61,347 nt of DNA, from contig CAZYES010000002.1 in assembly GCA_964646515.1 (NCBI GenBank), forward strand, positions 1 to 61,347, given 5' to 3'. This stretch comes from an uncultured Candidatus Saccharibacteria bacterium. GTDB lineage: Bacteria > Patescibacteriota > Minisyncoccia > Phycocordibacterales > PALSA-1337. The translations under genes were made by a program, and so were the position numbers. This document shows, piece by piece, positions 7,769 through 17,618 of the stretch (its first letter is position 1; each line of letters begins with the position of its first letter). Under the pieces are notes generated by a model, which had not been told where the DNA came from, did not search any database, and worked only from the letters and a program-made list of their open reading frames with translations.

Positions 7769-8119
7769 TTACTGTGGGTCCTTACCGACTTGAGCAAGCC
7801 ACAACTTAAATGGTTCAGCTTTCGGAGATGGAATAGATTGGATAATGCGTAAAATACCCCGCAAATCAGCACAGCTCATCTTCTGTCGACCTCCTTTTGT
7901 CATTATGTCAAGGGTATGTACAATTTGTATCCACCCTTGACTAAGTTGCTCGTCGCGTTCTCTCATCCTTTGAACGTACTGTTTTGCATCATTCGACTCA
8001 ATAAGCGCTAACACTATATCTTCCACTACAAAATACCACCGCTCTTTGTGCCATGCTCGACGAATTTCGTGCGATTCGAAAAGTGCAATTGATTTTGATT
8101 CCTGTTCCTTCTTTTCCAT
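7769..8119 (-). CDS. phage-type Bro-N/KilA-N-like DNA-binding domain protein, probably C-terminally short
   Basis: IRRAWHKERWYFVVEDIVLAL...RIIQSIPSPKAEPFKLWLAQVG resembles the N-terminal module of prophage antirepressor-like proteins. This family call comes from memory of the motif, not from a search. Confidence 0.45.
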   Translation of the reverse strand: MEKKEQESKSIALFESHEIRRAWHKERWYFVVEDIVLALIESNDAKQYVQRMRERDEQLSQGWIQIVHTLDIMTKGGRQKMSCADLRGILRIIQSIPSPKAEPFKLWLAQVGKDPQ

Positions 8120-8199: not shown

Positions 8200-8373
8200 G
8201 TGCGCGGGAGAGGACTCGGCTTCGCCTCTCGGCCGACCAGTCGTCCTCGGGCTAGCCACCGGCTCGCGGCTCGGCTTGCTAGCCTCGCACGCTGCGCCGT
8301 TCTCGTCCCTCCTTGCGTCACAATGATGCTCCACTCGGAGGCATAACATGCCTCCTCGTGGATCATTGTGCGC
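8200..8373. repeat. left 174-bp direct repeat (19-nt tRNA-Leu 3'-end copy plus 149-nt GC-rich module X plus GTGCGC)
   Basis: Compared base by base with 13688-13861 and found identical, at an offset of 5488 bp. Confidence 0.95.
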
Positions 8374-8417
8374 CGTCTGGAACGTTATTAGAACGGAGTT
8401 AAGTCTCGCAAGTTCAC

Positions 8418-9725
8418 CTATCTGTTATAAATAGCTTTCTCTGATCGTGCTTCAACTTCCTTCTTATATTCTCTTCGTGGCTTTTTCTTTTCCGCATCCA
8501 TTGCAAGCACGAATTCACGCTTCTTATCGGGTGAAAACTTACTAATCGTGCCTACCATTTCTTGCATCTGCTCGGGAGAAAGTGGATCTATCAACTCAGA
8601 AAAAGCGAGAGCTTGTGCTGCTGTTCTCACATCACCAGCATCTAAAGCAGCCAAACCGACGCCTTTTAATACCCGAGTACTTTCCATCGGATAATCATGA
8701 AAATCTAAAGCCCTATTTATGGCACCTTCCTTTTTTCTGTAGTCAAATACATTATTGACCCTTTCAGTCAGACCACGAATGAGTTCGTCGGGTTTTTCAA
8801 TTTTTTGATTCTCTTGAGTGACGTTAAAGCCGCCATTTTTACCTTTTTGCCGAAGCCCCTGACCATCTTTCAAAGCCTCTCTGTCTCTCCTCATCAGGTC
8901 TGCGAGCTTGTTCGGATCGTTGAGCTCTGCTATCTGATTTTTAAGATATTCAATGCGACGAGATGTCTCACCTCTCTTATAGGTTAAATAATCTTCTTTT
9001 TGTTTTGGTGTCCTTATAGAATCATTGGTATACTCGCCACTTGTAATGATTAGTTCCTCATTTTTAAGGGCAATTTCTTCTCTATCAATAGTCACCTGTA
9101 GAACACCTTCAACTGACCTTTTGTACAAATCAGGGTTTCCTGAGATAACAGCATAAGCTTCTTTGCCAGTGTCAATATCTGACGTCGCGATAAGTTTTTC
9201 TGCGGCCTTATTCAGTTCTGCCATTTGTTTTTCGCGCTCAACCTTTTCCTTATCTATCGGTTTAATGACACCCCCTTCCATCGTAAAACCTTTTGATTTG
9301 AATTCTTCATGAAAACGAGAGTTTTCCGCGCCCAAGGCTTGAAATTCTGGAGTAGATGTCCATGCGTCTCCAAATTTCTTATGACCTTCTTCATATTTAG
9401 CTTTCAACTCCGCATGTTTTTGTTGCAATTCAGCCAATACTGGGTCTTCATTTTTTGGACCAGTTGTCTCGCTCTCAGCAAGACCTTGAATATCTGTTGA
9501 ACTGGCAGCAGTTGATTCAACTCTCACCTCCTCCTTGCTGTCAACTTTAATTTCCTCTTGAAGACCTTTAAGCAAATCTTCCATATTCGCCGGTGTTGCT
9601 TCACTAGTTGGTTCAAGTATTTCAGGAGACGAAGTATTCCTTTTGGCTTCGTCTTCTTGACGGGCTTTTTCTAATAATTGATCCAGGCTTGGAGTTGATG
9701 AACTTTGTGGATTTTCTATGCTCAT
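8418..9725 (-). CDS. hypothetical acidic coiled-coil protein (element cargo)
   Basis: The ORF track begins at a TTG (9761). The first ATG (9725) gives MSIENPQSS... No recognisable domain. Confidence 0.5.
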   Translation of the reverse strand: MSIENPQSSSTPSLDQLLEKARQEDEAKRNTSSPEILEPTSEATPANMEDLLKGLQEEIKVDSKEEVRVESTAASSTDIQGLAESETTGPKNEDPVLAELQQKHAELKAKYEEGHKKFGDAWTSTPEFQALGAENSRFHEEFKSKGFTMEGGVIKPIDKEKVEREKQMAELNKAAEKLIATSDIDTGKEAYAVISGNPDLYKRSVEGVLQVTIDREEIALKNEELIITSGEYTNDSIRTPKQKEDYLTYKRGETSRRIEYLKNQIAELNDPNKLADLMRRDREALKDGQGLRQKGKNGGFNVTQENQKIEKPDELIRGLTERVNNVFDYRKKEGAINRALDFHDYPMESTRVLKGVGLAALDAGDVRTAAQALAFSELIDPLSPEQMQEMVGTISKFSPDKKREFVLAMDAEKKKPRREYKKEVEARSEKAIYNR

Positions 9726-9831
9726 AGAATTTATGTTAAAAATTGATAATTGTTTGAACAAGATCGATATGATTTGACTGACATAATAATACCACGTCTT
9801 CCGATAAAAGTGGCAGTCGGTTTTTGATCTT

Positions 9832-10133
9832 CGCCCCGCCCGTATCGGCTTTGGAGGGTAGGCGGTGCGCGAGCCGCTTTTGAGATGAGAACGCGTCTAC
9901 TTCCGCCCGTCACCACGAAACCTATTCGCGCCTAGCTCCTGTTGGTGCTGCGTAGCGCACCCCTATTGCGATCAGCAATTGGGGAAATGCGCGAAGCAGT
10001 ACGAACAGGAGCGTAAGGCGCGCCACATACCCTCTTAGGGCGGAAGTGGGCGCGTTCGTACTCTCGCATGTCACACGCTCCCGAAAAAGCGGCCGCGCAC
10101 GGCCTGCCCGGAAAAGCCGTTTGGGGCGGGGCG
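9832..10133. other. ~300-nt GC-rich, multiply nested stem structure (candidate single-strand origin or structured RNA)
   Basis: Nested perfect helices: 9832-9841/10124-10133 (10 bp), 9846-9852/10113-10119 (7), 9900-9908/10038-10046 (9), 9927-9932/10017-10022 (6), 9935-9943/10004-10012 (9), plus two terminal hairpins at about 9944-9961 and 9960-9984. Line 10081-10140 is 72% G+C. Confidence 0.65.
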
Positions 10134-10174
10134 CCACAGACGCAATCAATATTCATTGGTGTTAAACTATATGA

Positions 10175-11017
10175 ATGGATCTCCTCATAGCTGAACTTAA
10201 CCACAAATATTCAGAATTTTTAACTGCCATCGAAAGACACAGCCTCTGTAGGACTTCCAGAGCTGTATATGAATACTTTGATCTTGTTCAAGGACAGAAA
10301 ACCATACAGAAAATACTGGAAACTGACAGGCAAGAAATTGCTACTCGTAAGGCCATTGTAAACTCTGGTACCAGTTCAACCCAGGATAGTCGAGACGAAA
10401 TCGTGAGACGAATCGAAAGGAATTCGCTCACATATAGCCATGATTTAATTTACAACAAAATGTATGCGCCCATGAAGGCATACAAGGAATCTACCGATCA
10501 CAATGATGAGAAGGTACTGACCGGCATGTCTTTATTGTTTCAAAACGAATCTATTTCTGGAAAACTGATGGGTACTTGGGATCAATTCAAATTATACTGC
10601 GCACTGGATGACTTAGTTATTTGGATGGAGAGAATCCACGCGACTCTCGTAAAAAAGTTGCTTGAAGTAGAGAAACCAGAACCTGTGATTGCTTTTGATG
10701 CGCCGAACAAAATTAAGATCGTTATTGATGACCGCAAAGGTATTTACCAGGCTGACAAAGAACAGAATGCTTATGGTATTGAGAGAGACAGCAACAGAAT
10801 GAAACTGATCGAGCACCTCATTTCAAAAGATAACTGTGGCATCGCAGAGTTAGAAGAAATTACGGGTCAAGCGAGAAACGTCACCATAAAATCAATAGCG
10901 AAAATTAACGAGCTATTTAGAGAATATTTACATCTTGTTGACGATCTGATTCTTAGCTTGAAGACAGGTGGCTATTCGCTCAACAAGGACGTTTTCGACA
11001 TTATCGTGAAGCCGTAA
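10175..11017 (+). CDS. hypothetical protein with a possible C-terminal winged-helix/HTH tail (element cargo)
   Basis: 280-aa ORF with an ATG start. The C-terminal CGIAELEEITGQARNVTIKSIAKINELF looks HTH-like. Followed by a terminator. Confidence 0.5.
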   Translation: MDLLIAELNHKYSEFLTAIERHSLCRTSRAVYEYFDLVQGQKTIQKILETDRQEIATRKAIVNSGTSSTQDSRDEIVRRIERNSLTYSHDLIYNKMYAPMKAYKESTDHNDEKVLTGMSLLFQNESISGKLMGTWDQFKLYCALDDLVIWMERIHATLVKKLLEVEKPEPVIAFDAPNKIKIVIDDRKGIYQADKEQNAYGIERDSNRMKLIEHLISKDNCGIAELEEITGQARNVTIKSIAKINELFREYLHLVDDLILSLKTGGYSLNKDVFDIIVKP

Positions 11018-11047
11018 CCTTTAGGTGTTGTTGGTAAGTCCAGCCTA

Positions 11048-11073
11048 GGCGTCTAAAATACGCCCTCTTTTTT
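11048..11073 (+). terminator. intrinsic terminator
   Basis: GGCGT ctaaaat ACGCC followed by CTCTTTTTT. Confidence 0.55.
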
Positions 11074-11122
11074 GCATGAAGGTCATCTAACGGTTCATAT
11101 TGAAAATTGCGACCATTATCTC

Positions 11123-11326
11123 ATGGCACACCAATTCAGCCATGAGCTAACACAACGAGCACAGACATACTTCGGGGAAAAATCCGGTCGAGATATTTCA
11201 CATGAAGAAGCCAATGAGTACATGAACAGTCTGGCTAGCTTGTACGAATCGTTTATGGAATTGGCGGTGGCCGGCGGGACTGCTTCCGATGCTTTAGCGC
11301 GGAGCAGTCCGCCGGCAGTGCTTTGA
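11123..11326 (+). CDS. hypothetical small protein (element cargo)
   Basis: The track ORF starts at TTG 11072. The in-frame ATG at 11123 gives MAHQFSHELTQRAQTYF... The 3' end overlaps the conserved-loop hairpin. Confidence 0.4.
   Translation: MAHQFSHELTQRAQTYFGEKSGRDISHEEANEYMNSLASLYESFMELAVAGGTASDALARSSPPAVL
11270..11316 (+). repeat. conserved-loop hairpin, copy b (loop ATGCTTTAGCG)
   Basis: GCCGGC-G-GGACTGC-T-TCCG [ATGCTTTAGCG] CGGA-GCAGTCC-GCCGGC, about 17 bp with two single-nt bulges. Confidence 0.6.
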
Positions 11327-11366
11327 TGACTTGCTAGAGACCTAACCTAAGACAATACAGAAAACA

Positions 11367-12191
11367 ATGGGCTACAACAAAATCGTCACCTACGGAAACA
11401 TAATTGAAACATTCACATATGCAAGAGATCCCAATATTCCTCCAAGAACACAAAGAAGACATTCGTGCCATGCTGGAATTCCTGGTGCTTCAGATGATGC
11501 TGGCTCTGTCGATGAACGAGAGGCTTTCGAAGGCAAGCGCAAGGACAACGCAGACCGCGCTTCAATGGTTTTTCGACAACTCGTCCTCGCTAACCTTACA
11601 GGAACTGAATATCCTCTACTCCTTACTGCGACGTACCGGGACAACCAAACGGACTTACGCCAAGGCTACAGAGATTTCGGCGCTTTCATCCAGGCTATGC
11701 GCTATCGATTTGGAAAAGAATGGCGGTATATTGCAGTCCCCGAATTTCAAAAACGTGGAGCTGTTCATTTCCACGCTCTCATCTGGGGATTACCCACAAG
11801 TGTGTTTGAAGAAGAGCGATCTACCCGATTGGTTGCGGGACTCTGGAAACATGGATTTGTTTACCTCAAAATGACCGATGGGAATGAAAAGCTATCGTCA
11901 TATCTGACCAAATACATGGCTAAATCATTTGTAGACAGAAGACTCATGAATCAGAAAGCATATGTCTGCTCAAGAAATCTGAAGCGGCCTCAAGTCGTTG
12001 GCCACATTTCAAAATTCAGCATTGATACTTACCTAGAAGAATGTGGTGTGACTGATCCGGAAATCGACAACTCATACGAAACGCGTTGGCTTGGAACAGC
12101 ACGCCACCGCATTTACAAGCTCTCCACAGAAAATCCACCGAAACAAAAATTGTCCGAAGAAAATATTGAGAGTACAATTCCGTTAACTTAA
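11367..12191 (+). CDS. HUH-superfamily rolling-circle replication initiator (Rep)
   Basis: Motif I LLLTATY, motif II (HUH) AVHFHALIWG and motif III YLTKYMAKS, with two Tyr spaced YxxKY, occur in the canonical order. Confidence 0.75.
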   Translation: MGYNKIVTYGNIIETFTYARDPNIPPRTQRRHSCHAGIPGASDDAGSVDEREAFEGKRKDNADRASMVFRQLVLANLTGTEYPLLLTATYRDNQTDLRQGYRDFGAFIQAMRYRFGKEWRYIAVPEFQKRGAVHFHALIWGLPTSVFEEERSTRLVAGLWKHGFVYLKMTDGNEKLSSYLTKYMAKSFVDRRLMNQKAYVCSRNLKRPQVVGHISKFSIDTYLEECGVTDPEIDNSYETRWLGTARHRIYKLSTENPPKQKLSEENIESTIPLT

Positions 12192-12233
12192 ATTATTTTT
12201 TATTCTCATTATCAACATAACCATATCAATCAC

Positions 12234-13814
12234 ATGAAATACATTTTGTACTGTAGAAAATCCACTGATACTGAAGACAAACAGGTGCTTTCCCTTGAAT
12301 CACAGGAGAAGGAGCTTACCGATCTCGCCAAAGACCGGAATCTTGAAATCGTCCAAATTCTCACTGAAAAGAAATCTGCCAAAGCTCCCGGCCGCCCTGT
12401 ATTTAACGAAATGATGACTGCCATTTCTGCCGGCAAAGCCGACGCTATTCTCTGCTGGAAAATTGATCGCCTGACGCGTAACCCCGTTGATGGAGGACAG
12501 ATCCAATGGCTACTTCAAAACGGCAATATCAAGTGTATCCAGACTTCAGAGAAAACATATTTGCCTAGCGACAATGTGTTGTTAATGAGCATTGAGCAAG
12601 CTATGGCTAACCAATACATTCGCGATTTGAGCACGAATGTAAAGCGTGGAAATAGAGCCAAACTTGAACACGGCGGCTGGCCTAATCATGCACCGTTTGG
12701 CTATCTTAACGACAAAGCTAGCAATTCAATCATCTTGGACAAGAAACATTCTAAGTATGTGCCACGCATATTTGATCTCTACATTACCGGCGCTTACAGC
12801 CTGCAACAGATTTCAGATATTCTCTTCAAAGAGGGTCTTCGCACCTGCTCCGGGGACAAGGTACGCAAGGGAAAGATTCATAAAGTCCTGTGCAATAAAT
12901 TCTATATCGGCCTCATGGAAAGAGACGGCAAAATCTATCAAGGCAATCACGAAACATTGATCTCAAAATCCACCTTCGACAAAGCCCAAGACATTCTCTG
13001 TGGCCGCATCCATTCACGAAAACGCAATCATTTCTATTCAGCCCGAGGATTCCTGCAATGCGCCTCCTGCGGCTGTAATTTAACCTGTGACACCAAGAAA
13101 GGATTCAAGTATTACTACTGCACCAACGGCAAGGGCAATTGTGAACAGCATAAAAAATACATGAGATCTGAATTCATTGATGAACTGCTGGCCAAAATGT
13201 TCCTTAATCTCAAATTCGACGAGCAACTCATTCAAATGTCCGCTGATGCTTACAAAGAATCCAACCAGAGCAAGATTGATTACACACAATCGGCTACTGA
13301 TGCCCTCACAAGCGAGCTACAAGCCCTCACAAAGAAAGAATCTGTCTTAACCGACGGATATGCTTCTGAAGTCATTAAACCTGATATGTACAAGCAGAAG
13401 ATGTTGGAAATTGAAAACAAGAGAGCCGAGCTACAAACACAGCTCACAGAAATTCAGTCAAAGGGACCAGTCACTCAAGTTACTTTCGAACAGATCAGGA
13501 ATATTTTTATGGACGGCAACAGGGCCTCGGAAAAGTATATGGCCTCCGGAGATGAAGCAAAACGAAATATGCTGTCAAAGCTACTTTCGAACGCAACCAT
13601 CAAAAATCGAGAAGTGGCGCAGTACCAATTCAAAAGCCCGTATCAGGTGCTCGCGGAAACACCCAAAAACATTGATTTTGAAAAATTGTGCGCGGGAGAG
13701 GACTCGGCTTCGCCTCTCGGCCGACCAGTCGTCCTCGGGCTAGCCACCGGCTCGCGGCTCGGCTTGCTAGCCTCGCACGCTGCGCCGTTCTCGTCCCTCC
13801 TTGCGTCACAATGA
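12234..13814 (+). CDS. large serine recombinase (integrase)
   Basis: N-terminal resolvase-type catalytic region YCRKSTDTEDKQVLSLESQ...ILCWKIDRLTRN; recombinase domain; zinc ribbon CASCGCNL...YYYCTNGKGNC; coiled-coil C-terminus. The last ~42 codons and the stop lie inside the right 174-bp repeat. Confidence 0.85.
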   Translation: MKYILYCRKSTDTEDKQVLSLESQEKELTDLAKDRNLEIVQILTEKKSAKAPGRPVFNEMMTAISAGKADAILCWKIDRLTRNPVDGGQIQWLLQNGNIKCIQTSEKTYLPSDNVLLMSIEQAMANQYIRDLSTNVKRGNRAKLEHGGWPNHAPFGYLNDKASNSIILDKKHSKYVPRIFDLYITGAYSLQQISDILFKEGLRTCSGDKVRKGKIHKVLCNKFYIGLMERDGKIYQGNHETLISKSTFDKAQDILCGRIHSRKRNHFYSARGFLQCASCGCNLTCDTKKGFKYYYCTNGKGNCEQHKKYMRSEFIDELLAKMFLNLKFDEQLIQMSADAYKESNQSKIDYTQSATDALTSELQALTKKESVLTDGYASEVIKPDMYKQKMLEIENKRAELQTQLTEIQSKGPVTQVTFEQIRNIFMDGNRASEKYMASGDEAKRNMLSKLLSNATIKNREVAQYQFKSPYQVLAETPKNIDFEKLCAGEDSASPLGRPVVLGLATGSRLGLLASHAAPFSSLLASQ

Positions 13815-13861
13815 TGCTCCACTCGGAGGCATAACATGCCTCCTCGTGGATCATTGTGCGC
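13688..13861. repeat. right 174-bp direct repeat, fused to the tRNA-Leu 3' end
   Basis: Identical to 8200-8373. Its last 6 nt are the first 6 nt (on the plus strand) of the genuine tRNA 3' end. Confidence 0.95.
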
Positions 13862-13940
13862 GGGAGAGGACTCGAACCTCCATGCCCTAATGGGCGCTAC
13901 CACCTCAAGGTAGTGCGTCTACCAATTTCGCCACCCGCGC
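13857..13940 (-). tRNA. tRNA-Leu (anticodon GAG), long variable arm
   Basis: The minus strand reads GCGCGGG TG GCG-AAATTGGTAGA-CGC A CTACC TTGAGGT GGTAG CGCCCATTAGGGCATG GAGG TTCGAGT CCTC T CCCGCGC A; 84 nt. Confidence 0.9.
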
Positions 13941-14011
13941 TTTATAAACCACAATATTCAAAAAACTATAAGATACTGGCTAACTATAACCAAAAAACAC
14001 TAGTTTTTCAA

Positions 14012-14036
14012 TTAAAAATGTCTGCCAAAAGCAGAC
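14012..14036 (-). terminator. intrinsic terminator downstream of rplS
   Basis: The minus strand reads GTCTGC TTTTG GCAGAC followed by ATTTTTAATT. Confidence 0.6.
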
Positions 14037-14064
14037 CTGACGATTCCTCAACTTGTCTCATAAA

Positions 14065-14493
14065 TTATCCCTCCACTTCCTCCTTGGCTACTTCTCCTGT
14101 AGCCACAGCCTCTGTGACCATTGCCTCCGGCACGTCCTTCATGGTCATAGTACGACGCATCTGATGGCGAATCTCCTTGGCAGCTTTGCGCCTAATAAAA
14201 TACAACTTGGCACGACGAACCTTGGCGCGACGAATGATATCTACATCATCAATCATCGGCGAGTACAAAGGGAAAGTACGCTCAACACCAACACCATCAA
14301 TAACTTTGCGTACGGTAAAAGTAGCTCCCGCTTCGCGACCGTGTTTGCACGAGATAACGATACCTTCGAATGCCTGCAAGCGGAACTTGCCTTTGTCTTC
14401 TTCTATTTTCTGCCAAACACACAGAGTATCACCAGCACGAATGCCGAGATTCCTACGTTCCTCTATATTCACGGTCGTTATTACCTTTACCAT
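14065..14493 (-). CDS. rplS: 50S ribosomal protein L19 with an acidic C-terminal extension
   Basis: GDTLCVWQKIEEDKGKFRLQAFEGIVISCKHGREAGATFTVRKV..GVGVERTFPLYSP is the L19 core. Confidence 0.9.
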   Translation of the reverse strand: MVKVITTVNIEERRNLGIRAGDTLCVWQKIEEDKGKFRLQAFEGIVISCKHGREAGATFTVRKVIDGVGVERTFPLYSPMIDDVDIIRRAKVRRAKLYFIRRKAAKEIRHQMRRTMTMKDVPEAMVTEAVATGEVAKEEVEG

Positions 14494-14560
14494 AGTGAAA
14501 ATACACTATCATAAGCAGTACAAATATTCAAGAAAACTAACCACAGACTAAAGCCTAGTC

Positions 14561-15373
14561 TCACTGTTTGAGTTGTTCTAAAGCATACTCGAAATCGGCT
14601 GGCAGGGGCGCTTCAACCGCAATGCGTTTACCTTTTGTCATATTCTCAAATTCAATAAAACACGAATGGAGCGCAAGCCTTTGGAAACCCAACACCATTG
14701 GTCTTTTTGGCGCATAGAGAATATCTCCAACAACCGGGTGATTCACGGCATTCAGATGAACACGTATCTGGTGCGTCCTCCCCGTCTTTGGCTGGACCTC
14801 AAGATAAGAAAACTTTTCCATTTTCATTTTCCCTCCAAATGTATCCCCAAGCTTTCCATGTTCATAAGAAGAGTAATCGGGTATATCAATTTTGCCACTT
14901 ACAATCTTGGTCCAATAAGTCTCGGCTTCCCTCAGTTCACCTCTCGCGCCCCTCTGTGCAGACCACTTGCGAAAATCATTTCCACTTCTGCCAATCGGTC
15001 TTATAATAGTGCCAAATTCTTCATCCATCTCTCCCCAAACAAAAGCCTTATATTTCTTCGTAATAGTTCTATCCTTGAATTGTTTCTTCAGATGAGCATG
15101 CCCGTTGGCTGTCTTCGCAATAATTAACGCCCCAGATGTCTCCCGATCTAGACGATGAACGATACCCGCCCGATTAACCGGTTTGCCACTAGCGTCAGTC
15201 ATCGGATCTCCAACATTCTCTGCCTCTGGAAAATTATTAACAATCCATTCAGTCAAGAACGGCCCTTTCGCCCTACCATCGGAATGCACCATGAGACCGG
15301 CTGGCTTGTTAACAACAACACAATCCGTATCTTCATATAAGATTTCTACTTCTATACTCTCTTTATTGCTCAT
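14561..15373 (-). CDS. rluD: RluA/RluD-family pseudouridine synthase
   Basis: HRLDRETSGALIIAK catalytic motif. The true start is taken as ATG 15373 (MSNKESIEVE), because the track ORF up to 15742 runs through tRNA-Val and the GC-rich module. Confidence 0.85.
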   Translation of the reverse strand: MSNKESIEVEILYEDTDCVVVNKPAGLMVHSDGRAKGPFLTEWIVNNFPEAENVGDPMTDASGKPVNRAGIVHRLDRETSGALIIAKTANGHAHLKKQFKDRTITKKYKAFVWGEMDEEFGTIIRPIGRSGNDFRKWSAQRGARGELREAETYWTKIVSGKIDIPDYSSYEHGKLGDTFGGKMKMEKFSYLEVQPKTGRTHQIRVHLNAVNHPVVGDILYAPKRPMVLGFQRLALHSCFIEFENMTKGKRIAVEAPLPADFEYALEQLKQ

Positions 15374-15459
15374 AGCATGAATATACGCTAATCTATGGCA
15401 AAGGTGAAGTGCCATTGAAATCTTCAATCCTTGCAACCAGTTGCCCACAAAATTAACAT

Positions 15460-15532
15460 GCGCGATTAGCTCAGTTGGTAGAGCAGTGCTTTTACACAGC
15501 AAAGGTCGGGGGTTCGAATCCCTCATCGCGCA
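15460..15532 (+). tRNA. tRNA-Val (anticodon TAC)
   Basis: GCGCGAT TA GCTC-AGTTGGTA-GAGC A GTGCT TTTACAC AGCAA AGGTC GGGGG TTCGAAT CCCTC ATCGCGC A. Confidence 0.9.
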
Positions 15533-15780
15533 CATTTGATCTGTACCCCCTAGTGAGTTTGTAAGCAACAGCAAGTCGCCTACGCGACTTGCGCGAGGGA
15601 TTCGAACAGCGAGCGATCTCCGAGCCAGCGGGCGAGGAGCGCGAGCTGGTGCCCAGGAAATGTGAGCGGGTAGCGAACATTTCCGAGGGCGAATCCTCGA
15701 TCGCGCACTGCTTCGCTCGCTATCGCGGGCTACGCAGTGCAAGCACCAGTCCTGCGTAGCTTTAGCGGAGCAGGACTAAT
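15533..15780 (+). repeat. GC-rich module V, 3' of tRNA-Val, containing a degenerate second copy of the tRNA 3' end
   Basis: GAATCCTCGATCGCGCAC (15691-15708) compares with the tRNA's GAATCCCTCATCGCGCAC (15516-15533), 175 nt upstream. An inverted T-arm copy TGCGCGAGGGATTCGAAC lies at 15590-15607. Hairpins lie at 15571-15592, 15704-15740 and 15748-15777. Confidence 0.7.
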
Positions 15781-15794
15781 TCGTAAGCGTCTGA

Positions 15795-17618
15795 TTACAT
15801 CTTCACCGCCGCAACCTTGTCCATCGGGAAGACAGAGCTAGTCAACACTTCGCAAAGTATACCTGGGCAAGCATTACTTGTTACTGGATAGAAACCGTAA
15901 TAACCCAAAGTACCAAGAGTGCCCAATCCATATATACCTTCTCCGGCCTGTGGTTGTATGGCCATTATTTCGTCCACTGTAGCAGGCCGATATCCCATCG
16001 CAGCTAGTCTCAAGGCAATTTCTTTTGGCTGTACGCCAAGTTTGTCTCTACCCAGAGCATCTATAATTGGAGAATCTGGCATTAATCTTTTGAACTGGAA
16101 CACTGTTACAGTAACCTCTTTCGGAGGAGTATCCTTAGCCTGAACAAGATTATTCATGTGCTTTCTACTAAAAAACAGGTCTTTGCCATAACGAACGTTG
16201 GCCGTATATGACTTGGCTATATATTCTGACGGTGACATAACCGGGCGAACGGGCACTATTATTATTTTCGTCTCGGGAGCATTCAGACTAAGTATTTTTT
16301 GTTTGTTATATTCTGGGGGAAGATTGGAAACATAATTACTATCCAAACACAGACCAAAGACGACTGGATTTCTATAAAGCCAATCGGCTGAACTATAGTA
16401 TCTTTGAACTCCTGAGCCCTTTTCAACGGCACCGGGCCTTGTCCCATATGATTTATACAACCAAGTAAATGGCACGTGCTCTACTACTGAACGTATGTAC
16501 AGTTTCTCTGGAGTTAGAAGTGAACTTGCTGTCGCTTGACCAGATTGGATCATTTCGTTTGCCTTCTCAAAACTTACCACATTCGTACAACCTTTCTCTA
16601 TATGATTGTACGACGCACCACCGGCTAGACCTATGGTACACCCTTCTGGTGGGCAATCCAGTGCAATATATTCACCCGAAGGATTCAGTGTCTCTTTGGC
16701 TTGTGAAATTCCTTGGATAGATTTGAGTGCCGACCTATATTCTGTTTGAGTAAACAATTTACCAGTATTTGGGTTTTTCTTCGTCATCCATGTGGTTGAA
16801 TCCCAAAAGAAATAATTTATGGAGTTATATACATGCCACTCACCAGGATAGGGATTACTCACTTTTGTACCATCAGCATTATTGCATATTACACTAAAAT
16901 CATTTGACTTGGCACCACCACATGAATAGTCATAATAAGTCGGAATGTTTACAGTCATATACTCCAAACCGTTTCGCTGTTTTACAGTGCTTGTAGCCAA
17001 CCAATCAGTTGCCCAGGTGGCCTTAGTTCTATAACTAAAAGTTGGCACGTTCAGCATAGACGCGAGAGAGACGGTATTACTAGTACCAGTGGTATTCGTA
17101 GTTGCGGTAGTAGTTGTATTGTATGGCCAAGAATTACTCGGCGTCAGAGAACCCAAGAGACTGTTCAACAAAGTTTGCCCGGCTCCCGAGTCAGTTTGAG
17201 ATGACTGGGTATTCTGATATGAAGCGGTAGTTACAGTGTTATTGGTGGCACCGGTAGTCTTCGGCGTACAAGTATAACCAGAGGGACAGTCAACACCTAT
17301 AGAATATGACGAGACCGTGTTCGTGGAATAGGACGATGTATTCGCTGGTAAATCCGAAGTATTACAGCTCTCTTGCTGTATAGCCGATCTGGTCAAAGCG
17401 CCAACATAACCCGTACCTTCTATGTTATGAGCTATCTGGTATCTTTTGACAGCACTCATAGTCATAGTACCAAAATAACCCGTTGGCTCTGTATCGAGAT
17501 AACCAGTGCGTACTAGATAATCTTGTAGAGCGGTCACATTGGTGCTGGTAGTACCTCTGCCAACATCAGCAGGAAATGGTGACACAAGAATTCTGGAGAT
17601 CACTACCCGATGGGTCAT
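15795..17618 (-). CDS. surface protein with a PG-binding-like domain; body of a gene whose signal peptide is out of frame
   Basis: ADVGRGTTSTNVTALQDYLVRTGYLD...GYFGTMTMSAVKRYQ is a PG_binding-type segment. The CPSGYTCTP motif is shared with ORF 4794..6962. See the frameshift finding. Confidence 0.65.
   Translation of the reverse strand: MTHRVVISRILVSPFPADVGRGTTSTNVTALQDYLVRTGYLDTEPTGYFGTMTMSAVKRYQIAHNIEGTGYVGALTRSAIQQESCNTSDLPANTSSYSTNTVSSYSIGVDCPSGYTCTPKTTGATNNTVTTASYQNTQSSQTDSGAGQTLLNSLLGSLTPSNSWPYNTTTTATTNTTGTSNTVSLASMLNVPTFSYRTKATWATDWLATSTVKQRNGLEYMTVNIPTYYDYSCGGAKSNDFSVICNNADGTKVSNPYPGEWHVYNSINYFFWDSTTWMTKKNPNTGKLFTQTEYRSALKSIQGISQAKETLNPSGEYIALDCPPEGCTIGLAGGASYNHIEKGCTNVVSFEKANEMIQSGQATASSLLTPEKLYIRSVVEHVPFTWLYKSYGTRPGAVEKGSGVQRYYSSADWLYRNPVVFGLCLDSNYVSNLPPEYNKQKILSLNAPETKIIIVPVRPVMSPSEYIAKSYTANVRYGKDLFFSRKHMNNLVQAKDTPPKEVTVTVFQFKRLMPDSPIIDALGRDKLGVQPKEIALRLAAMGYRPATVDEIMAIQPQAGEGIYGLGTLGTLGYYGFYPVTSNACPGILCEVLTSSVFPMDKVAAVKM

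Follow-up and report, generated by a model that had tools for sequence, protein, structure and literature searches.

Folded, non-coding cassettes with tRNA-matched ends trail tRNA genes in Patescibacteria

Three GC-rich modules in the 61,347-nucleotide stretch of DNA analysed here (hereafter, the window), one directly behind tRNA-Val (V) and two at tRNA-Leu (X1 and X2), belong to a single family of folded, non-coding, tRNA-trailing cassettes of Patescibacteria (CPR). The cassettes are ~130–175 nt long and follow at least 14 tRNA isoacceptors. No description of them was found in the literature that we searched, and the family is apparently undescribed.

Results

The cassette behind tRNA-Val

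The gap between tRNA-Val and the stop codon of a convergent gene for a 607-aa peptidoglycan-binding protein is 261 nt long, and its GC content rises to ~0.60, compared to ~0.42 window-wide. V occupies 15534–15708, directly 3' of the tRNA. The features of this locus are the following:

15460–15533, plus strand: tRNA-Val(TAC), host tRNA of V (ARAGORN; Rfam tRNA model, 69.9 bits)
15534–15570, plus strand: spacer from tRNA-Val to P0 (sequence; indels at 15536–15549 in a contig of run X5)
15571–15592, plus strand: P0 hairpin, GCAAGTCGCC-TACG-CGACTTGC (fold, family sequences)
15590–15607, plus strand: P1 5' arm, inverted copy of tRNA-Val positions 53–73
15607–15648, plus strand: P2 hairpin of the conserved core, with loop AGCRGGC and tandem GA (model alignment, covariation)
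15650–15691, plus strand: P3 hairpin of the conserved core, with base UGCCC/GGGCG containing an invariant U.G, and loop GAGCGGGTAGCGA
15690–15708, plus strand: P1 3' arm, degenerate direct copy of tRNA-Val from the T-loop to one base past the discriminator
15701–15780, plus strand: strain-variable 80 nt with hairpins C (15705–15740) and D (15748–15777)

Both arms of V copy the stretch of tRNA-Val around positions 53–74. The direct copy, GAATCCTCGATCGCGCAC (15691–15708), is identical to the tRNA-Val end (15516–15533) at 15 of 18 positions, with 3 mismatches and an offset of 175 nt; 0.06 matches as good as this one are expected by chance in the whole window, so that the near-copy reported in the initial annotation is borne out. 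It is a direct repeat downstream of an intact tRNA, the arrangement by which displaced tRNA fragments (attR) are recognised. Between the two tRNA-Val repeats (175 nt), we found no integrase-bearing element and no remains of one, that is, no ORF matching a family and no likeness to element ends. The inverted copy of the T-arm and acceptor (15590–15607), also noticed earlier, is real: 13 nt of it (15595–15607) are perfectly complementary to 15512–15524. This arm has a 3-nt deletion at the T-stem/acceptor junction and scores 15 against the cognate tRNA vs. 12 against the best non-cognate tRNA, and the outer 6 bp of the P1 helix that it forms are those of the tRNA-Val acceptor stem.

Among related strains, the 15534–15570 spacer carries many indels. 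P0 hairpins of the GCAAG...CTTGC type are also present in L097, L102, L103, L115 and L129, with compensatory changes, and a terminator scan detected no U-run after V's P0 on the plus strand. Hairpins C and D continue V beyond the tRNA-end copy; the 80-nt block that contains them (15701–15780), which is flanked by TCG repeats, is missing in a related strain (joint 15700 to 15781, runs X6 and X14), and a homologue of hairpin C stands after the L137 module. Hairpin C (GCACTGC...GCAGTGCAAGCAC) is itself a miniature of the 'core, inverted core, core' pattern.

Neither a plus-strand terminator separating tRNA-Val from V nor a promoter of V's own was found, so that V, if transcribed at all, would be co-transcribed with tRNA-Val. 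The depth of metatranscriptome contigs over V is ~2, equal to that of the neighbouring genes, without enrichment. In the predicted lowest-energy fold of a transcript containing tRNA-Val and V, 15595–15607 would pair with the tRNA T-arm and the cloverleaf would be broken. Other readings of V were rejected by eye: a direct copy of the 5' strands of the tRNA, which gave way to a true inverted copy given that V reads GAGGGATTCGAAC, the exact complement of GTTCGAATCCCTC; a hammerhead-type junction, the strands of which do not fit; and a retroviral-type primer-binding site, as the inverted arm is complementary to the genomic trailer rather than to CCA.

V and X belong to a family with tRNA-matched arms

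A covariance model built solely from members found in other metagenomes, and containing no window sequence, scored V at 87 bits (E ~ 1 × 10−28), X1 at 77.8 bits and X2 at 72.7 bits (E range 10−28 to 10−23), and detected no further cassettes in the 61-kb window, where the next-best match had E = 0.7. This outcome answers the refuting condition that the initial annotation had set. Direct comparison of X and V yields a local alignment score of 23, vs. 17.9 ± 2.7 for shuffled sequences (z = 1.85; 59 of 1000 shuffles scored as high). Because this pairwise similarity is not significant, the homology of V and X rests on intermediates, and L050 links the two in sequence. The proposal that V and X share ordered blocks was therefore correct with respect to their membership in one family, which the independent model demonstrates, but not with respect to pairwise similarity beyond that of shuffled sequence, nor to the third block, which does not match V as it was written (there is a 1-nt indel in V, CCGAG-GGCGAA).

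Further copies with tRNA-matched 3' ends came from other metagenomes. A metagenome scan with the core pattern of V and L050 returned 50 loci, ~22 of which are genuine low-GC members; about half of the 50 were rejected as chance matches in high-GC coding DNA or a CRISPR array, to which the model assigned no score. In seven of these loci (L090, L096, L105, L107, L119, L127 and L128), the pattern matched by chance a CRISPR-like array (repeat GTAGCATTCACCCCCAAGGGTGGGTGC..) of a high-GC organism. The tRNAs ahead of the genuine pattern loci are those for Ile, Ser (three isoacceptors), Arg, Lys, Glu, Gly and Leu, with the tRNA end ~96–113 nt upstream of the pattern and a copy of the tRNA end 16–17 nt downstream. 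This copy begins within the T-loop (positions 54–59) and stops one base past the discriminator. The 3' arm copies the upstream tRNA end exactly in L100, L103, L110, L118, L129, L131 and L111b, and is cut back or decayed in L097, L102, L106, L114 and L133 (truncated in L097, L114 and L106). The suggestion, made from V and X, that a conserved core is combined with a 3' end specific to the host tRNA is thus borne out.

The inverted arms follow their tRNAs as well: the mean score of the inverted arm is 12.1 against the cognate tRNA vs. 8.3 ± 1.8 against non-cognate tRNAs (Mann-Whitney p = 2 × 10−10). The cassette's own tRNA is the top match of the inverted arm in 12 of 24 cassettes, V being among the best, and the inverted arms of L102 Arg, L106, L133 and L114 do not match their tRNA.

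A search of 13400–16000 against Rfam 15 (including the tRNA, tmRNA and TLS models) at E up to 10 retrieved only two tRNAs, and the whole window at the gathering score only six tRNAs. A coding region was rejected, as the indels in the core are not multiples of three and break the frame.

A shared fold with compensatory changes

The fold common to these cassettes consists of an optional 5' P0, a closing helix P1 formed by the inverted and the direct arm, with a recurrent 3-nt bulge, and a three-way junction with P2 and P3; the core contains conserved loops and tandem G.A motifs. The z scores of the fold are −4.4 for V and −6.0 for X, and both strands of V and X fold well, as palindromic DNA would. 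Base pairs were counted in an alignment of 32 sequences that was fitted to the model, such that the counts are biased towards structure: 95.3% of the cells are paired (vs. 73.9% in shuffled and 32–47% in slid controls), 22 of the 24 pairs changed on both sides (vs. 13.0 of 24 in shuffled controls and 5–10 in slid controls), and the covariation score is 0.55 (vs. 0.18 in shuffled controls, 0 of 500 of which reach 0.55, and 0.04–0.09 in slid controls). Application of RNAalifold to a plain MAFFT alignment shows compensatory changes at 18 of 24 pairs. In the paired columns, read on the tRNA-sense strand, there are 36 G.U pairs vs. 5 A.C pairs (13 vs. 5 without one invariant U.G). This excess of G.U over A.C indicates that the tRNA-sense strand is the favoured folding strand, in agreement with what had been deduced from a single T.G wobble, which is indeed present in the 15705–15740 hairpin as read from the sequence.

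Two identical cassettes flank an integrative element at tRNA-Leu

At tRNA-Leu(GAG), the following features were identified:

13857–13940, minus strand: tRNA-Leu(GAG)
13688–13861, minus strand: X1, cassette after tRNA-Leu(GAG), between the tRNA and the 3' end of the recombinase gene
8374–13687: integrative element, 5.3 kb (Pfam, PHROGs, strain joint)
12234–13679: large serine recombinase (the ORF continues to 13814)
11367–12191: rolling-circle Rep, PF23343
8374–8396, minus strand: 'site a', CCGTTCTAATAACGTTCCAGACG, conserved sequence at the far end of the element; next comes the core GCGCAC (8373–8368)
8200–8373, minus strand: X2, second copy, 100% identical, between the conserved end of the element and the chromosomal flank

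The initial annotation had a single X at tRNA-Leu. This X is present, and it occurs twice, X1 and X2 forming a 174-bp perfect direct repeat (13861–13688 and 8373–8200) on either side of the 5.3-kb element. The tRNA-Leu 3' end repeat is exact with the reported period of 168 nt, and its third occurrence lies at 8200–8217. The recombinase contains Resolvase, Recombinase and zinc-ribbon domains and carries the PHROGs label integrase; besides the recombinase and Rep genes, the element has a further three ORFs of unknown function. Site a is the putative P half-site of attP. X sits outside site a, on either side of the element, and is accordingly not part of the recombinase element, contrary to the earlier assignment; cassettes are missing from most of the element's relatives, many far ends of which are plain. 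A contig of a related strain (run X7), in which 8197 is joined to 13687, contains tRNA-Leu, one X and the flank, without the element. Among the contigs of runs with the window, there were no circular or excision junctions, the 5489-nt deletion form being the only one present. The presence of X on both sides of the element, both in the window and in L001, is not the product of one standard serine-recombinase event; homologous recombination between insertion isomers, or a cassette-carrying element, would explain it.

Several further observations concern this region. The recombinase ORF crosses the att core (13680–13814), so that its last 6–45 codons are set by the joined DNA (tRNA antisense, cassette or site a); the protein lengths of the relatives, 487–548 aa, vary with the joined sequence, and the C-terminus of the recombinase could be integration-dependent. 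Within the element, between divergent genes, the stretch 9800–10150 is ORF-poor, with a GC content of 0.56–0.58 and no relation to the cassette model, and may be a replication origin or a regulatory region. The chromosomal flank of X2 is adjoined by a gene for a Bro-N domain protein (7769–8119), and a similar-looking gene lies downstream of the L099 cassettes.

The recombinase family and its integration sites

Relatives of the recombinase number more than 3,700 at E ≤ 1 × 10−20, and the few of these with a source name are from Patescibacteria. We compared 80 genome loci of this family. In ~60 of the 80, a tRNA gene on the opposite strand begins 9–23 nt past the recombinase gene (residue 482); these tRNAs are mostly Gln and Ser, and also Leu, Lys, Trp, Tyr, Ile, Arg, Pro and Asn. 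The far end of the element consists of site a (CCGTTCCAAC..CGTCCCA..) and the last 6–10 nt of the target tRNA, after which the flank follows. Site a is conserved in ~30 related loci, and many loci contain 2–3 stacked copies of it. From these junctions, we infer that the family integrates one base past the tRNA discriminator, with tRNA positions ~53–74 as the putative B half-site and the ~27–29-nt site a as the putative P half-site. The attP half-sites of serine integrases are longer than their attB half-sites, and the size difference between the putative half-sites agrees with this.

No close relatives of the recombinase or Rep were found in viral contigs, where three distant matches were detected, none with a usable circular junction; nor did terminal overlaps reveal a circular form among short recombinase-bearing metagenome contigs. 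Five loci with a Patescibacteria-type recombinase (L044, L048, L049, L060 and L069) are labelled Bathyarchaeia, Bdellovibrionales or Gammaproteobacteria, which are likely binning or labelling errors. In L069, no tRNA abuts the recombinase gene; site a lies ~4.7 kb upstream of the recombinase, and behind it come first a palindromic hairpin and next a complete inverted tRNA-Gln, an arrangement that may have arisen by inversion or by an event in the opposite orientation.

Cassettes stack and shuffle at element junctions

Cassette boundaries coincide with element junctions, and cassettes stack and shuffle. They stand directly after site a in L019, L021, L037, L039, L053, L070, L095 and, as X2, in the window; between the tRNA and the recombinase end in X1, L001 (Tyr) and L050 (Gly); and alone after the tRNA in V, L037 (Thr) and L079 (His). 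The recombinase end abuts a cassette arm in the window (13688), L001 and L050, and in L050 the element is inserted precisely 3' of the cassette arm, its far end being plain. Cassettes without a recombinase on the contig are common, comprising most of the solo ones, on contigs that are short. All cassettes are co-oriented with their tRNA.

The order and combination of cassettes differ between loci. L095 and L099 contain the same two cassettes after site a in reversed order, each ending in the tRNA-Ser core. Behind tRNA-Leu(CAG) in L111, two different cassettes with identical, exact 19-nt arms stand in tandem, and two more are found behind tRNA-Ile. In L102, as in the window, an X-type cassette follows tRNA-Leu(GAG) and a V-type cassette follows the next tRNA, and this locus contains mosaic P0/P2/P3 combinations. 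L001 has the order tRNA-Tyr, cassette, element, cassette, ~2.3-kb remnant, cassette. None of the contigs examined contained a circular cassette or element junction.

Other cassette types occur at these loci. A second, smaller type, which starts with ..TGAGCGAAGCGAA.. and ends in a tRNA core, stands right behind the tRNA or site a cores in L095, L099, L111, L129 and L001. Two more core types, with the same layout of arms plus hairpins, follow tRNA-Thr, His, Tyr and Leu(CAG) and were missed by models R1/R2; one has the form GGGGTCGG..GGAAAAC..CCCGTGG and the other GGTTCTCCCATAT..GGGAAACC. The loci of these two types are:

L037, 16526–16670
L079, 145–347
L001, 7908–8074
L111, 4261–4385

Discussion

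The explanation that we favour, and to which we give an even chance of being correct, is that the cassettes are a non-autonomous family that regenerates an integration half-site and that V is a solo, partly decayed relic. The 19–22-nt arm has the length and position that the attB half-site of the tRNA-targeting elements with a large serine recombinase (LSR) and a rolling-circle Rep would have. A cassette would then be a non-autonomous unit that is delimited by recombinase cores and occupies the integration site, and its 3' end would rebuild a usable half-site, which would allow more cassettes or whole elements to stack behind one tRNA. Presumably, the recombinase moves the cassettes. The cassette ends are unlike the P and P' arms of the element, so the standard rules of attP × attB recombination fail to explain cassette movement, and a function of the folded strand beyond the regeneration of a half-site is indicated by its conserved loops, its tandem G.A motifs and the G.U bias of the sense strand. 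Also at odds with this explanation are the presence of X on both sides of the element, the absence of circular junctions from the contigs, the many elements that lack a cassette, the solo cassettes on short contigs that bear no recombinase, and the inverted arms that do not match their tRNA. The description of V in the initial annotation as a solo relic or miniature of the same element family captures its solo state, its decay and the lack of a recombinase nearby, but V is not simply a deletion derivative, having nothing in common with the element ends.

The same features of the fold can be read in other ways. The cassette could be primarily an RNA gene encoding a tRNA-like small RNA co-transcribed with the tRNA, with mobility secondary; this we consider unlikely. 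Under this explanation, P1 would mimic the acceptor/T-arm stack and discriminator, RNase P and the tRNA 3'-end enzymes would excise the RNA, and P2 and P3 would carry its function. The strong covariation, the 36:5 ratio of G.U to A.C on the sense strand, the conserved loops with tandem G.A motifs, the constant co-orientation with the tRNA, the core indels that exclude coding, the match of V's outer 6 bp of P1 to the tRNA-Val acceptor stem, and the absence of a plus-strand terminator between tRNA-Val and V and of a promoter of V's own are all compatible with such a gene. However, the core of L108, L110, L053 and L070 is preceded by a P0 that forms a strong hairpin and, with its U-run, resembles a terminator, the cassettes at site a are ~5 kb away from the tRNA promoter, V is not enriched over its neighbours in the metatranscriptome (depth ~2), Rfam contains no match, and an RNA gene leaves unexplained why the arms stop at the recombinase junction and why P1 matches the neighbouring tRNA. 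Somewhat less probable, in our view, is that V and its relatives are functionless scars, namely displaced tRNA 3' fragments and end pieces that stayed behind after elements had integrated repeatedly and been lost imperfectly. These tRNAs often carry stacked element ends and remnants, tycheposons are known to leave partial tRNA repeats when they integrate one after another, and the arm of V is decayed, while those of L097, L114 and L106 are truncated; yet scars would keep neither a tRNA-matched inverted arm nor a core of ~90 nt with compensatory changes, which is found with at least 14 types of tRNA and in many samples unrelated to one another. This core also has no relation to the ends of the sole element family found alongside.

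We doubt that the cassette is a functional, mobile, target-programmed module, built on a conserved three-way-junction scaffold with two arms rewritten to suit the tRNA ahead of it, the folded sense strand of which, as tRNA-like RNA or single-stranded DNA, is active in site choice, integration control or tRNA-end processing for the serine-recombinase/rolling-circle elements. That the folded strand, as RNA or single-stranded DNA, is a target-matched guide or site mimic for the recombinase or Rep at a given tRNA seems highly improbable to us: a conserved scaffold with two target-tracking arms, a rolling-circle Rep that implies a single-stranded stage, and an arm equal to the putative attB half-site would all suit a guide, whereas most elements integrate at tRNAs without any nearby cassette, the cassette lies outside the element, and the favoured strand in the window is opposite to the coding strand of rep and the recombinase. 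Furthermore, we know of no serine recombinase that uses a guide. The probability that the cassette is a cis-acting switch, an idea that goes back to the initial annotation, is, we believe, very small too. Here the inverted arm would alternate between two partners, preventing the cloverleaf when paired with the 3' half of the tRNA and releasing it when paired with the decoy 3' arm, and would thereby tune tRNA maturation, as could be expected from three mutually exclusive segments in the correct order and from the disrupted cloverleaf in the predicted lowest-energy fold of tRNA-Val with V. Such a switch is difficult to reconcile with a single mobile core that serves many tRNAs, with cassettes that persist when a 5-kb element separates them from the tRNA, and with members that have a terminator before the inverted arm or an unmatched arm; moreover, the tRNA folds before the arm is transcribed.

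Among known systems, the nearest precedent for stacked partial tRNAs together with serine recombinases at tRNAs is provided by tycheposons, in which partial tRNA repeats result from successive integrations and some of which use a large serine recombinase (bioRxiv 10.1101/2020.12.28.424599). As in Islander-type islands and tycheposons, a direct repeat of the tRNA 3' end lies downstream of an intact tRNA and successive units stack, but the cassette between the repeats is just ~130–175 nt long and non-coding, and it has a covarying core across many tRNA types as well as an inverted copy of the tRNA end. Like integron cassettes with their attC sites, the units form arrays in which each cassette ends in a recombination site and the order differs between strains, and the sites themselves are imperfect palindromes with unpaired bases (the 3-nt bulge of P1) and a strand-specific fold, as the G.U and A.C counts show. 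Unlike integron cassettes, they carry no gene, their palindrome arms copy the host tRNA, and the associated recombinase is a serine enzyme, acting on duplex DNA; among the nine proteins scanned around both modules, there was no IntI tyrosine recombinase with attI, the neighbour being the serine enzyme. With MITEs, the cassettes share small size, a highly structured non-coding sequence bounded by inverted repeats, and the lack of an enzyme of their own. However, their inverted repeats match the neighbouring tRNA and not an autonomous parent, differing from both site a and the recombinase-gene end; and they occur only behind tRNA genes or element ends. As to a target-site duplication, none of the ordinary kind is evident; the 19-nt copy could be read as one, although the spacer and P0 part the tRNA from the inverted arm.

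The folded single-stranded attP of CTX-phi-type phages resembles the cassettes in that two inverted target copies ~90 nt apart form a stem that mimics the site, and in the rolling-circle partner element. These phages mimic dif, use the XerCD tyrosine recombinases and carry the hairpin inside the phage, in contrast to the cassette, which is outside the element and the stem of which mimics one half-site only. The bridge RNAs and seekRNAs of IS110/IS1111 likewise combine a conserved folded scaffold with target-matching segments; they are, however, encoded in the element beside a DEDD-type recombinase and needed for every event, whereas the cassettes lie outside site a and most elements have none. 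Finally, P1 reproduces the acceptor stem, discriminator and T-stem, with other helices replacing the rest, as in tRNA-like structures (the tmRNA domain, viral TLS and minihelices), but no T-loop is formed and the models of tRNA, tmRNA and TLS do not match.

Little is known of the mobile elements of CPR bacteria, the genomes of which are tiny. The analysis defines a very large family of ~5-kb elements with an LSR and a rolling-circle Rep at many tRNAs, for which P and B half-sites can be inferred, and a widespread, covarying cassette with arms that follow the host tRNA. If the cassettes are mobilised in trans, they would represent a new type of miniature passenger of serine recombinases and would supply naturally occurring attB variants for enzymes that are of interest to biotechnology. 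Should the fold act as RNA, it would constitute a new class of tRNA-like RNA, and if the cassette is a target-programmed module, no serine recombinase system before it would have had a structured accessory matched to its target. The cassette accounts for GC-rich islands behind tRNAs in these genomes and provides a model for their annotation.
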